From Octopus vulgaris (taxonomy: Eukaryota): 64,000 bases of DNA. The stretch is taken from positions 47,058,001 to 47,122,000 of the forward strand of contig OX597819.1 in NCBI GenBank assembly GCA_951406725.2, given 5' to 3'. The notes beneath the pieces were generated by a model. That model made no database searches and was not told where the DNA came from. It saw nothing but the letters and a program-made list of their open reading frames with translations. The position numbers were made by a program, and so were the translations under genes. Every line of letters begins with the position of its first letter. The first letter of the stretch is position 1. Positions 42,581 through 63,973 of the stretch are shown one piece after another.

Positions 42581-42814
42581 TATAAACTCTCTCTTTTACT
42601 CTTTTACTTGTTTCAGTCATTTGACTGTGGCCATGCTGGGGCACCGCCTTTAGTCGAGCAAATATACCCCAGGACTTATTCTTTGTAAGCCTAGTACTTA
42701 TTCTATCGGTCACTTTTGCCGAGCCGCTAAGTTACGGGGACGTAGACACACTAGCATTGGTTGTCAAGCGATGTTGGGAGAGACAAACACAGACACACAA
42801 ACACACACACACAC

Positions 42815-42869
<55 letters not shown>

Positions 42870-43035
42870 AAAAAGGGACAGGCAAAACAGGTTGCTTGAC
42901 CGCATACCGAAAAAATAGAAATAGCAGTCAAGAATGCTTATTTCTATCAAAGTTGGACTCCGGGCATGACAGACCCTGTAATTCACATATGCAAAACAGA
43001 AGGAATAGATAACGAATACGAAGTCTGGCGGTTAT

Positions 43036-43146
43036 CTGTGAACATCATGTTTCTGGATTATAAACATATTGAATATATATTCCATATATTTTTGATATAT
43101 ATTTCATATATATTGCATATATATTTCACATCCTTCTTCAGCACAG
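43036..43146 (-). ncRNA. Type I hammerhead ribozyme candidate, long stem II variant (array copy 1)
   Basis: CTGTG-CTGAAGA-A-GGAT...ATCC-A-GAAA-CATGATG-TT-CACAG. Confidence 0.65.
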
Positions 43147-43651
43147 CTTTCCATTGAAAAAGATTTATCATAGATTTATCAAATGCTACGTACCTCAAAC
43201 CTTCTGACCATGCGACATCAAAATATTTGAAGAAAGTGAGCAAAGGCTAAACCTACATAGACGTTTGAATTCATAAATCTTCCCTCCAAAATTTTGCCAT
43301 GCGCATTACAGTTAGGTTGTCAAAGGGAGTGAAAAATCCAAATAGTAATATAATGATAAGAGTAAATAATTTCTATAAAGGCTTTTAAAAAAACCCCAAT
43401 TATTTACTGGTAGAATTCGGTATGTAAATATAGCCGATTACCGGCAGGAACTTCTGTAAAGTTCAGTATATATATTGTATATAAGAAAAAGGGACAGGCA
43501 AAACAGGTTGCTTGACCGCATACCGAAAAAATAGAAATAGCAGTCAAGAATGCTTATTTCTATCAAAGTTGGACTCCGGGCATGACAGACCCTGTAATTC
43601 ACATATGCAAAACAGAAGGAATAGATAACGAATACGAAGTCTGGCGGTTAT

Positions 43652-43762
43652 CTGTGAACATCATGTTTCTGGATTATAAACATATTGAATATATATTCCA
43701 TATATTTTTGATATATATTTCATATATATTGCATATATATTTCACATCCTTCTTCAGCACAG
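43652..43762 (-). ncRNA. Hammerhead candidate (array copy 2)
   Basis: Same as 43036-43146, offset by 616. Confidence 0.65.
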
Positions 43763-44267
43763 CTTTCCATTGAAAAAGATTTATCATAGATTTATCAAAT
43801 GCTACGTACCTCAAACCTTCTGACCATGCGACATCAAAATATTTGAAGAAAGTGAGCAAAGGCTAAACCTACATAGACGTTTGAATTCATAAATCTTCCC
43901 TCCAAAATTTTGCCATGCGCATTACAGTTAGGTTGTCAAAGGGAGTGAAAAATCCAAATAGTAATATAATGATAAGAGTAAATAATTTCTATAAAGGCTT
44001 TTAAAAAAACCCCAATTATTTACTGGTAGAATTCGGTATGTAAATATAGCCGATTACCGGCAGGAACTTCTGTAAAGTTCAGTATATATATTGTATATAA
44101 GAGAAAGGGACAGGCAAAACAGGTTGCTTGACCGCATACCGAAAAAATAGAAATAGCAGTCAAGAATGCTTATTTCTATCAAAGTTGGACTCCGGGCATG
44201 ACAGACCCTGTAATTCACATATGCAAAACAGAAGGAATAGATAACGAATACGAAGTCTGGCGGTTAT

Positions 44268-44378
44268 CTGTGAACATCATGTTTCTGGATTATAAACATA
44301 TTGAATATATATTCCATATATTTTTGATATATATTTCATATATATTGCATATATATTTCACATCCTTCTTCAGCACAG
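44268..44378 (-). ncRNA. Hammerhead candidate (array copy 3)
   Basis: Same as 43036-43146, offset by 1232. Confidence 0.65.
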
Positions 44379-44490
44379 CTTTCCATTGAAAAAGATTTAT
44401 CATAGATTTATCAAATGCTACGTACCTCAAACCTTCTGACCATGCGACATCAAAATATTTGAAGAAAGTGAGCAAATGCTAAACCTACAT

Positions 44491-45297
44491 TATTTTTTCG
44501 GTATCGGTCAAGCAACCTGTTTTGCCTGTCCCTTTTTCTTATATACAATATATATACTGAACTTTACAGAAGTTCCTGCCGGTAATCGGCTATATTTACA
44601 TACCGAATTCTACCAGTAAATAATTGGGTTTTTTTTAAAAGCCTTTATAGAAATTATTTACTCTTATCATTATATTACTATTTGGATTTTTCACTCCCTT
44701 TGACAACCTAACTGTAATGCGCATGGCAAAATTTTGGAGGGAAGATTTATGAATTCAAACGTCTATGTAGGTTTAGCCTTTGCTCACTTTCTTCAAATAT
44801 TTTGATGTCGCATGGTCAGAAGGTTTGAGGTACGTAGCATTTGATAGATCTATGATAAATCTTTTTCAATGGAAAGCTGTGCTGAAGAAGGATGTGAAAT
44901 ATATATGCAATATATATGAAATATATATCAAAAATATATGGAATATATATTCAATATGTTTATAATCCAGAAACATGATGTTCACAGATAACCGCCAGAC
45001 TTCGTATTCGTTATCTATTCCTTCTGTTTTGCATATGTGAATTACAGGGTCTGTCATGCCCGGAGTCTAACTTTGATAGAAATAAGCATTCTTGACTGCT
45101 ATTTCTATTTTTTCGGTATGCGGTCAAGCAACCTGTTTTGCCTGTCCCTTTTTCTTATATACAATATATATACTGAACTTTACAGAAGTTCCTGCCGGTA
45201 ATCGGCTATATTTACATACCGAATTCTACCAGTAAATAATTGGGGTTTTTTTAAAAGCCTTTATAGAAATTATTTACTCTTATCATTATATTACTAT
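44491..45297 (+). repeat. Inverted arm of the 616-bp array (1.3 units)
   Basis: Reverse complement of 43342-44149 with a 1-bp deletion and a few substitutions. Confidence 0.95.
44877..44987 (+). ncRNA. Hammerhead candidate (inverted arm)
   Basis: CTGTG 44877-81, CTGAAGA 44882-88, GGAT 44890-93 / ATCC 44965-68, GAAA 44970-73, GTT ending 44982, CACAG 44983-87. Confidence 0.65.
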
Positions 45298-45330
<33 letters not shown>

Positions 45331-45579
45331 CGACAGGCTTCTTTCAGTTTCCGTCTACCAAATCCACTCACAAGGCTTTGGTCGGTCCGAGGCTATTGTA
45401 GAAGACAGTTGCCCAAGGATCCACGCAGTGGAACTGAACCCGGATTCAAGCTACTTACCACACAACCACTCCTGCGCCTATAAATATATATATATTTGCA
45501 TTACATTTTCAGTATTGAGCATTCTCTTTTTGCCTACACAGGAGTCTTCGCATTAATGTGCTTACATAATTTTTAATAT

Positions 45580-51258: not shown

Positions 51259-52260
51259 AAGGGGAGTTTCGATCAAAAGGGATCGTAAAAGGAGAGAAAG
51301 AGGACAAAAAAGGGGGGTTAAGAAAAAGGGGAGAGAAAAAAAAAAAAAAAAAAAAAAAATTGATCAATAGGGATCGTTATCACAGAAATGTCAATATGAA
51401 GTGTAAAGGGGAGGACAGGTGAGGTTTACCCGTGGAAAGAAAAGCCTACGGAAAAGACCACGGTAACCTCGGTCAATGAAGTCACATTTTATATTTCTTT
51501 TTTTTTTTTTTGCAAATAAGCAACTCTCTGTTTTCGATTTCTGGGTTCATAGGACTATGCTCAAGGTGGCTTCGTCATTCATACGTGCCATTCTTGCTAC
51601 ATTCACCCATCTTTTTTTAAAACATTCGCTAGACAAAACTTGCCTCTCTACTCTCACTTTCCTTTTCAAGTGGTACTTGAAGAAGTTGATGAGAGATTGA
51701 CCAGAGAGGAAAGTGTTTGTCTCCAATCCTTTCAGACGCGTCCACCAGATACATTCCTTCGCCATAGCCACAAGGATGATGAAAATAGCTCTTCCTTCCC
51801 GTTTGAAGGAAGGAGGCGTGACAATATTGACGATAGACTCAGCTGATAAACCGACTCGTCCCACACGTGACAGCAGTTGTTCGACATAAGCCCACAGGTC
51901 GGAAATTGTTGGACACTGAACGAGTGCGTGCAGAACGGTTTCGTCGCTCTGACCGCATCTCGGGCAGGTCGGCCCCGTGTTTCTCGAGCCGTGTCTGTAG
52001 AGCTTATCCCGAACGGGTAGCGCTTCTCGGTAGCACTGCCAGGCCAGGGATCTCTGGAAGTTGTCCATGGGCCCTGGCCCGAAAGTCGTCCTGAACAGGC
52101 GGGTCAGGTACTCCTCGTCGACGTCCAGGTTCGCCCCGAGCTCGTCGTCGTACCTCCCCTCCACTAAACCCCTATAGAATGCTTTGGTTGTGTTGAAGTC
52201 ACTTAAGGTCGACCCAGGACGGCAGAGTTGCTTGAGAGCAACGCGACACTCGCGGTGCCA
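51156..52260 (-). mobile_element. 5'-truncated Tx1/L1-clade LINE (ORF2 C-terminus with zf-RVT, plus 3' UTR)
   Basis: Open frame 52260-51547 with AWQCYREALPVRDKL...CPRCGQSDETVLHALVQC; AATAAA terminus; flanked by (GATA)n on both sides. Confidence 0.9.
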
Positions 52261-52815
52261 GATAGATAGATAGATAGGAAGAAATAAATAAATAAATAAA
52301 GAAAGAAAGAAAGAAAGAAAGGAAGAAAGGAAGAAAGAAAGGGGGAAAACAGACGAATGGATAATTCTTCCCTCTCGTTCTATTTTCTTCACAGTTGACA
52401 CTCTAGTCATAGCTGATCAAGAACTGGGATCGATTCAATCGACTAAGCACATTCGCACATTTCTGACGTATTCTGAAAACCATTTTTCTACAGCGCCACC
52501 TGGTGCACTTCCGTGTTCCTGTGAAGCGTACAGCGTAGTGTTCTTACTTTTGAGGGGGATTTGGGGGCAGGTATAGACTCCTCCTGTTGGTTTACTCCAT
52601 CAGTTTGTTCTATTATGGCATTTAGTTTCTTGTTTCTTGGTAAAAATTGGTTTCGAATTTTGGCACGAGGCCAGCAATTTCTGGGTAGTGACTAAGTCGA
52701 TTACATCGATCCCACTCTTCAACTGGAACTTGTTTTATGTTTCTTGTTATATTGGTTTCAAATTTTGGAACAAGGCCAGCAGTTTCGGCAGAGGGGGGTA
52801 AGTCGATTATTTATG

Positions 52816-53234: not shown

Positions 53235-53285
53235 TTGTGCTGAAGAAGGTAAGAACTTTGTGTCAGACTAAAAACTGGTCCATAT
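53235..53285 (+). ncRNA. Decayed hammerhead of the same variant architecture
   Basis: TGTG-CTGAAGA-A-GGT...ACT-A-AAAA-CTGG-TC-CATA (G12 changed to A), directly after (TA)n. Confidence 0.4.
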
Positions 53286-53464
53286 ATATAGCTTTAGGCT
53301 ATAATGTTATCTGAGAAATCTTTTTCTGTTCGCTTGCCCGTATACTGTTGTATCTGTTATTTTCAGTGTAATTTTTCGTAATCCAAATGAGGATTTTAAC
53401 TCTTATTTCTAGCAGGCAGACACTTCAATGTGTCCTTTGGTTAATATATATGCATATACGTATA

Positions 53465-63340: not shown

Positions 63341-63973
<633 letters not shown>

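Follow-up and report, generated by a model that had tools for sequence, protein, structure and literature searches.

Minimal hammerhead ribozymes of Penelope elements (PLEs) are the starting point for comparison with the motif described here. Cervera and de la Pena 2014 (PMC4209133) and Lunse et al. 2017 (via PMC6765202) describe a palindromic stem III, a larger-than-usual helix II, an unpaired nucleotide after A9, a short or missing helix III, and a proposal of cleavage as a dimer. The dimer mechanism is already in print (PMC4209133, PMC6765202, PMC7229834). The enlarged helix II contradicts an earlier sequence-only reading of our locus, which took minimal Penelope hammerheads to have a very short stem II. 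The motif studied here, in a 64,000-nucleotide stretch of the Octopus vulgaris genome (the window), shares the palindromic stem III, the enlarged helix II, and the unpaired nucleotide after A9. Unlike the minimal motifs, in which G10.1-C11.1 before GAAA is highly conserved and there is little or no helix III, it has an A before GAAA and 4 bp on each side of stem III.

The Hydra clade of PLEs, defined by the motifs RWK, DKT, and CxCX5C, inserts into (TA)n (Craig et al. 2021, PMC8557442). Its File S2 covers 25 Hydra families, 19 of which carry 9-nt palindromes, and one of those 19 is identical to the palindrome of the autonomous family described below. The 10.1·11.1 pair is mismatched in 15 of the 25 (14 U·U and 1 U·C, with A·A in none), stem II domains reach at most 26 nt, and one octopus family is listed. 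One entry outside the Hydra clade has an A before GAA, opposite C. Our hammerheads resemble these in having a type I fold close to a 3′ end inserted into (TA)n, the 9-nt palindrome, and the mismatch. They differ in that the published families are autonomous, lack A·A, and have short domains, whereas we found domains of 81 and 46 nt in repeat families (F1 to F3) that lack an ORF. The odd palindrome and the mismatched stem II base are known Hydra-clade traits; only the very long arm and A·A look new.

Animal non-LTR retrozymes are the closest non-autonomous systems (Cervera and de la Pena 2020, PMC7229834; Li, Clavereau and Pollet 2026, 10.64898/2026.07.22.740005). As described in both papers, they are low-GC, non-coding tandem repeats with one type I hammerhead per unit and a monomer predicted to be highly paired, and they coexist with PLEs. 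Our 616-bp repeat, F1, is alike in each respect, although the stem II of the retrozymes in these texts is much shorter than that of F1. The F1 unit of 616-644 bp is longer than the retrozyme circles of 170-400 nt that have been shown experimentally (PMC7229834), a point against a retrozyme; the size range of 51-972 bp in 10.64898/2026.07.22.740005 includes F1. The latter paper derives retrozymes from PLE ends (pLTRs), and it reports that 8 of 9 Xenopus dimers did not cleave and that related hammerheads are often weak or silent in vitro. Dimers of the axolotl motif HHR_Amex2, in which U·U is mismatched at the helix II base, cleave better than the monomer (PMC7229834). Natural core insertions A6a and U13a are known, as is a U10.1·U11.1 mismatch from prokaryotic-type motifs (Perreault et al. 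2011, PMC3088659); the passages compared contain no A·A and no insertion between 11.1 and G12. In the literature covered, we found no A·A at 10.1·11.1 and no stem II domain above 45 nt described for cephalopod PLE hammerheads, either of which could stand in Lunse et al. 2017 or in the supplements of PMC4209133, PMC3088659, and 10.64898/2026.07.22.740005.

A type I hammerhead within a 616-bp repeat

The stretch that had been flagged is a genuine type I hammerhead motif with predicted cutting. It contains the type I core (CUGANGA, GAAA, and UH, with three stems and an open stem I), and the isolated 111 nt are predicted to fold spontaneously into the three-way junction. Scanning the window with a hammerhead descriptor yielded five matches: this motif, three identical copies of it on the minus strand, and the F2 motif, which matches its earlier description. 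In 60 dinucleotide shuffles, the mean was 0.03 matches with the loose descriptor and 0 with the strict one. Shuffled and reversed controls ruled out a chance origin. Coordinates, descriptor scan, and self-folding all agree with the initial proposal of a hammerhead with pairing stems. The features are listed in Table 1.

Table 1. Positions of hammerheads, carrier repeats, and the autonomous element (window coordinates unless a locus is named)
Feature	Position	Strand	Details
Type I hammerhead, family F1	44877..44987	+	Found by descriptor scan and folding
F1 stem I, 5 bp	44877-44881 / 44983-44987	+	CTGTG / CACAG
F1 core, 5′ part	44882-44888	+	CUGAAGA
F1 A10.1·A11.1 mismatch	44889 / 44969	+	A11.1 immediately 5′ of GAAA
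F1 stem II base, 4 bp	44890-44893 / 44965-44968	+	GGAT / ATCC
F1 extended stem II domain	44889..44969	+	Base GGAT/ATCC plus AU-rich hairpin on 11/22-nt period repeat (44895-44957)
F1 GAAA	44970-44973	+	
F1 stem III, 9-nt palindrome	44973-44981	+	ACAT-G-ATGT
F1 predicted GUU cut	44982/44983	+	After U44982 (U17)
Predicted competing hairpin	44862..44889	+	Stem I 5′ strand and CUGAAGA against upstream sequence (44862-44872 with 44877-44889)
Identical F1 hammerhead, left arm copy 1	44268..44378	-	C3 at 44373
Identical F1 hammerhead, left arm copy 2	43652..43762	-	C3 at 43757
Identical F1 hammerhead, left arm copy 3	43036..43146	-	C3 at 43141
F1 right arm	44491..45297	+	~1.3 units; 3′ end at unit position 171-177 into (TA)n
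F1 left arm	42862..44490	-	~2.7 head-to-tail units; 3′ end at unit position ~52 into (TA)n
Type I hammerhead, family F2	63552..63631	-	46-nt stem II domain; ACCG-T-CGGT
F2 element	63440..63973	-	Unit ~434 bp, 1.2 copies; 3′ end in (GA)n/(TA)n tract
Decayed F3 hammerhead	53235..53284	+	G12 to A
F3 repeat remnant	53236..53427	+	
Autonomous Hydra-type element	L152:2321-4501	+	ORF; ~1.1-kb 3′ UTR to ~5600

The stem II domains, given earlier as 79 and 45 nt, measure 81 and 46 nt once the flanking A residues are counted, and the 11-12-nt repeats proposed for the longer one correspond to the periodic repeat in Table 1. The arms were also said to be wobble-rich. This holds for the 46-nt F2 arm, with 4 G-U among 15 pairs, but not for the F1 arm, whose 29 pairs comprise 25 A-U, 3 G-C, and 1 G-U. 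The folding z-score of the F1 domain is -3.6. A standard pair between A9 and G12, whether G10.1-C11.1 or another, is absent; its place is taken by A·A in F1 and F3 and by A-U plus an unpaired A in F2. Local Rfam scans of F1, F2, and three relatives returned no hammerhead family at E ≤ 10, and in the scan of the whole window, the matches listed (150 of 346) were all of miRNA type and driven by microsatellites. The long arm and variant junction may be the reason for the missing match. Because Rfam models miss these motifs, cephalopod hammerhead counts are probably far too low.

F1 is a young, non-coding repeat found throughout the genome, with one hammerhead per 616-bp unit. The insertion at 42862-45297 consists of two arms that point away from each other and end, on their outer sides, in a single (TA)n tract. 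This target sits inside a common composite repeat, the halves of which flank F1 at 42590-42860 and 45316-45480. In the source genome (2.8 Gb, 227 contigs), an F1 search gave 946 candidates, of which 40 were scored; 41 full-length top matches were 99-100% identical. The 3′ half of the hammerhead core had 451 exact matches (control, 0), and leaving the position before GAAA free again gave 451; among the first 100 listed, that position was A in 97 and G in 2, and had no nucleotide in 1. An assembly artefact was ruled out, since the same architecture occurs on many contigs with private variants. A coding role was likewise ruled out, as the longest stop-free frame in the array is only 85 aa. F1 contains no autonomous Hydra-clade ORF (an RT with RWK and DKT, a CxCX5C linker, and GIY-YIG), and tblastn found no PLE match within the window. 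GC content is 33%, below the 45% used for retrozymes. Modeled as a circle, the unit is predicted to be highly self-paired (64% paired), with folding z-scores of -7.0 on the hammerhead strand and -3.2 on the antisense strand (40 shuffles). Like retrozymes, F1 is thus a non-coding tandem with one type I hammerhead per unit.

The residue before GAAA, the long arm, and the palindrome

The sequence-only reading joined three contexts in the window (F1, F2, and F3) into one variant defined by a long stem II, an extra A before GAAA, and an odd-length palindromic stem III. The A is present in all three. A one-sided insertion, however, occurs only in F2, which has an A10.1-U pair followed by one unpaired A; in F1 and the F3 family, a second unpaired A follows CUGAAGA and creates a 1x1 A·A loop. 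The third context was recognized correctly as a decayed hammerhead, but the F3 family shares only the A before GAAA with the proposed variant. Outside the decayed window copy, the family has an intact motif in which positions 10.1 and 11.1 are A·A, the stem II domain is 24 nt long, and the palindrome is even (6 nt, ACCGGT). The window copies of F1 and F2 have odd palindromes (9 nt).

F2 and F3 are older families than F1, with 1,879 and 144 genome candidates, respectively, and a tandem and inverted layout like that of F1. BLASTN among F1, F2, F3, and three PLE 3′ UTRs revealed no similarity; we therefore counted the three families as unrelated at that sensitivity. F1 and F3 have the string TGTG-CUGAAGA-AGG...CC-AGAAAC in common, which may reflect remote ancestry. 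The heptamer CTCTTAT occurs in F1 (44665-44671), F2 (63454-63460, minus strand), and F3 (53401-53407), where in F1 and F2 it precedes a preferred 3′ end by ~10 nt and in F3 likewise lies close to the end. A common priming or protein-recognition signal is one possible reading, and a chance occurrence in AT-rich DNA is another.

We compared copies within the F2 and F3 lineages. Some copies of a 70%-identical relative of F2 have A·A followed by GACT/AGTC or AACT/AGTT, and others are without the 5′ A; F2 proper has ACCT/AGGT or AACT/AGTT, then A, with the 5′ A missing. The one-sided A of F2 thus probably arose by loss of its 5′ partner. The A before GAAA persists even where the 5′ A is lost: all 38 distinct F2 copies keep it, as do 10 of 11 in the 70%-identical relative, and in F3 the figures are 26 of 27, and 10 of 11 for a 68%-identical relative. 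Copies of one master are not independent, and these counts equal a handful of events. Stems I-III change compensatorily between subfamilies while the A persists, and the A may therefore not be neutral in these lineages. Palindrome parity switches within the F2 lineage. In the distal arm of this lineage (15 sequences), two of eight pairs change on both sides and 98% of cells are paired, against a control inflated by related sequences. Pairs were counted for the distal arm only; the junction and stem III were parsed by anchors because MAFFT misregistered both. Covariation of stems I-III between subfamilies within F2 and within F3 bore out the earlier proposal that the stems differ and still pair.

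The autonomous Hydra-type family described below provides a larger view of the same position. Leaving position 11.1 free, we found 8,783 minimal matches with a stem II of 2-3 bp and a GNRA loop (10-nt domain). At the 3′ end of the element, the hammerhead has the odd palindrome ACTC-A-GAGT and a 2-bp stem II that is based on A·A and capped by a GNRA loop. Among the first 100 of the 8,783 listed, all from the start of one contig, with inverted pairs counted twice and bases counted by eye, the variable base was A in 43, U in 31, G in 23, and C in 3. It is always opposite A10.1 and is therefore position 11.1, and the mix of A, U, and G implies that A-U, A·G, and A·A subfamilies have all expanded.

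We then sampled the genome in 140 stretches of 10 kb (1.4 Mb; L158-L297) at round spacings on the 13 largest contigs, with 4 stretches moved off already known loci. The sample contained 35 hammerheads, compared with 0 in the reversed control and 0, 0, 0, 1, and 0 in five shuffles. At this density, some two dozen families supply ~25 intact hammerheads per Mb; rough extrapolation suggests ~70,000 Penelope-linked hammerheads genome-wide. (TA)n-type DNA lay 40-600 nt downstream of 24 of 31 sampled hammerhead sites, compared with a background of 35%. The base before GAAA was C in 13, U in 10, A in 10 (5 of them from the autonomous family), and G in 2. Positions 10.1 and 11.1 formed a standard pair in 16 motifs; the 19 without one comprised seven with A·A, four with U·U, two each with A·C, A·G, and G·A, and two with other combinations.

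A long arm, an A before GAAA, and an odd palindrome never occurred together among the 35. All 12 hammerheads with a long stem II domain (45-100 nt) had even palindromes, and only one of them had the A; the longest domains were 78 (L261), 80 (L226), and 100 nt (L219). Hammerheads that join a long arm to a canonical G-C pair also lie 3′ of GIY-YIG frames, and the autonomous 3′ UTRs of L053 and L054 carry long-armed hammerheads. Odd palindromes were present in 12 of 35. By copy, they accompanied the A (7 of 10 with A, compared with 5 of 25 without; P = 0.015), but this association was lost when families, grouped by hand, were counted once (P = 0.32).

These data bear on the proposal that the long stem II, the inserted A, and the odd palindrome cooperate in a distinct subclass, cleavage of which needs two tandem copies and thereby gives rise to arrays. 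Retention of the A across diverged F2 and F3 subfamilies, the truly one-sided A of F2, the covarying distal arm, and the association by copy speak for it. The complete lack of co-occurrence in the sample, the parity switch within one lineage, and the autonomous family, which swaps A, U, and G at the position and has a 10-nt domain, speak against it, and we regard it as quite unlikely. More probably, the hammerheads of this clade tolerate the three traits separately, and the A that precedes GAAA is in most cases the 11.1 base of a stem II closing pair that is mismatched and relaxed. A different possibility is an octopus-type radiation in which G10.1-C11.1 was replaced, in more than one lineage, by purine-rich A·A or A·G; here, the A by G12 would be functional, extending the sheared G·A stack and permitting a covarying arm of 45-100 nt as a brace or Penelope-protein site, and the genome would hold a library of variants missed by Rfam. 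We consider this doubtful. Other one-sided residues were also observed: G10.1 with a one-nucleotide C bulge or extra C before GAAA in a family represented at L178:5074 (-), L263:8039 (+), L030, and L065, and a G-C pair plus extra A in L032 and L277, placing one-sided insertions in more than one lineage.

Tandem arrays and dimer cleavage

The stem III hairpin is predicted to be unstable within a monomer (+2.1 kcal/mol for F1 and +0.4 kcal/mol for F2) and stable as a self-duplex (-6.4 and -11.3 kcal/mol, respectively), a point in favor of the cooperating subclass. Dimer-type cleavage through the palindromic stem III is plausible on these modeled energies; it fits the published mechanism and is not new. 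On these energies, only same-strand tandems would be good masters. The need for tandem copies is a weak cause for the arrays. The first 100 exact F1 core places, from which copies with an altered core would be missed, group into 52 insertions, and among the matches listed, 27 of the 52 have a single exact-match core, which also counts against the subclass, and only 15 have same-strand tandem cores. Nineteen of the 52 have cores on both strands, and all 19 are divergent and none convergent, as is usual for Penelope insertions. PLEs are described as forming tandem and inverted copies, priming internally at two sites, and targeting microsatellites (PMC8557442; PMC11167929), the latter paper describing two internal start sites and a "tail". 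The longest array contains 13 head-to-tail units and a short inverted arm (L157, G000:C1:120155385-120163476). Across 28 insertions, copies diverge by 0.7% within the same arm, 0.8% between opposite arms, and 2.1% between insertions, a difference partly explained by shared subfamily. Reverse transcription around a circle is a likelier origin for the arrays than a need for cleavage.

Predicted competing folds complicate the picture of the monomer. The predicted probability of stem I is 0.86 for the isolated motif and 0.27 for the circle; linear flanks give values from 0.39 down to 0.00, and the competing hairpin in Table 1 pairs the 5′ strand of stem I. We considered an off-switch in the circle; since the hammerhead junction lies only 0.9 kcal/mol above the predicted minimum there, the hammerhead would not clearly be switched off.

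The hammerhead could instead be a weak or dispensable relic, with F1 spreading by Penelope internal priming alone while the junction drifted and the arm grew by slippage. Ribozyme mutants of a lizard PLE inserted unimpaired in vitro, and the cut site showed no RNA ends (PMC11167929). The 19 sampled motifs without a 10.1-11.1 pair point in the same direction, as do the stem I probability of ≤0.03 in three of four flanked contexts and the F1 arm, a short-period repeat with deletion variants among copies. The intact cores and the covariation of stems I-III between subfamilies, which need selection on the fold in master copies, are difficult to reconcile with a relic, and we judge this explanation very unlikely.

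The Hydra-type element and the proposed mobilization of F1

Using as a query a GIY-YIG fragment that lies beside one F1 copy, we obtained 18,381 candidates, of which 150 were scored; many lie in open frames of 727 aa. The 727-aa RT and GIY-YIG ORF carries the RWK, DKT, and CxCX5C motifs, and because these three published motifs are present, we assign it to the Hydra clade. Pfam did not recognize the ORF, and one fragment gave only a weak GIY-YIG match. The element ends in (TA)n, is very abundant, and is apparently still expanding. In three cases (L029, L151, and L153), F1 arrays directly adjoin autonomous copies in the same (TA)n tract, which may reflect either joint insertion or repeated use of one target. 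F1 showed no sequence similarity to the 3′ UTR of this element or to two other PLE 3′ UTRs; we therefore infer a helper, and mobilization in trans, from target site and architecture only, with the 727-aa element family as the candidate helper.

F1 itself has sharply defined ends. Unit position 52 accounts for 13 and positions 171-177 for 17 of the 53 distinct 3′ junctions recorded, and nearly all then continue into (TA)n; these preferred ends lie ~190 and ~310 nt past the predicted cut. Together with the motif, the copy number, the lack of an ORF, the divergent arms, and the abundant intact Hydra-type element, these two fixed ends and the (TA)n targets were observed directly. We think it likely that F1 is a non-autonomous passenger (an animal retrozyme) of Hydra-clade PLEs, the ribozyme of which is predicted to cut tandem transcripts into monomers. 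A same-strand F1 tandem would be transcribed, and two of its hammerheads would join, their 9-nt palindromes forming 8 bp around G·G, with cutting after GUU. The 616-nt monomer would then circularize and fold into a highly paired RNA. The Hydra-type RT/GIY-YIG protein would nick (TA)n on both strands, and reverse transcription would start inside the RNA at one of the two sites past the cut. Copying round the circle, or along a multimer, would yield 1-13 tandem copies and a divergent second arm.

Alternatively, F1 could be a detached terminal repeat (pLTR) of an autonomous Hydra-type element that our searches did not find, the arrays being abortive copies of its end or products of later unequal crossing-over. 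The long-armed hammerheads in the autonomous 3′ UTRs of L053 and L054 and the published derivation of retrozymes from pLTRs fit this idea, as do the heavily 5′-truncated, inverted ends frequent in the autonomous family (many divergent pairs <100 bp apart). However, at 60 mapped F1 loci (overlapping, ~35 insertions, and a minority of the family), the unit joins head-to-tail to itself, up to 13 times, and the PLE ORFs next to F1 in L029, L151, and L153 each have their own 3′ UTR and hammerhead. A detached terminal repeat is therefore unlikely.

As a probable passenger of Hydra-clade PLEs, F1 indicates no new mechanism; the novelty is modest and consists of A·A and the long arm, two variants that assort separately. 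If active, these motifs would widen the natural sequence space of hammerheads, the most thoroughly studied ribozymes, to junctions with A·A or A·G where G10.1-C11.1 normally stands and to stem II arms of up to 100 nt. F1 is a convenient test system for retrozyme mobilization by Penelope proteins: its copies are 99% identical, internal priming apparently starts at two sharp sites, and the genome also holds an abundant intact Hydra-type element. In an expression check against 20 contig sets of uncertain RNA status, 211 bases were covered piecemeal by contigs, which cannot show RNA ends or circles. Elsewhere in the window, the 3′ fragment of a non-LTR retrotransposon ORF lies at 51550-52416 on the minus strand and contains a zf-RVT domain (PF13966, E = 3e-8).
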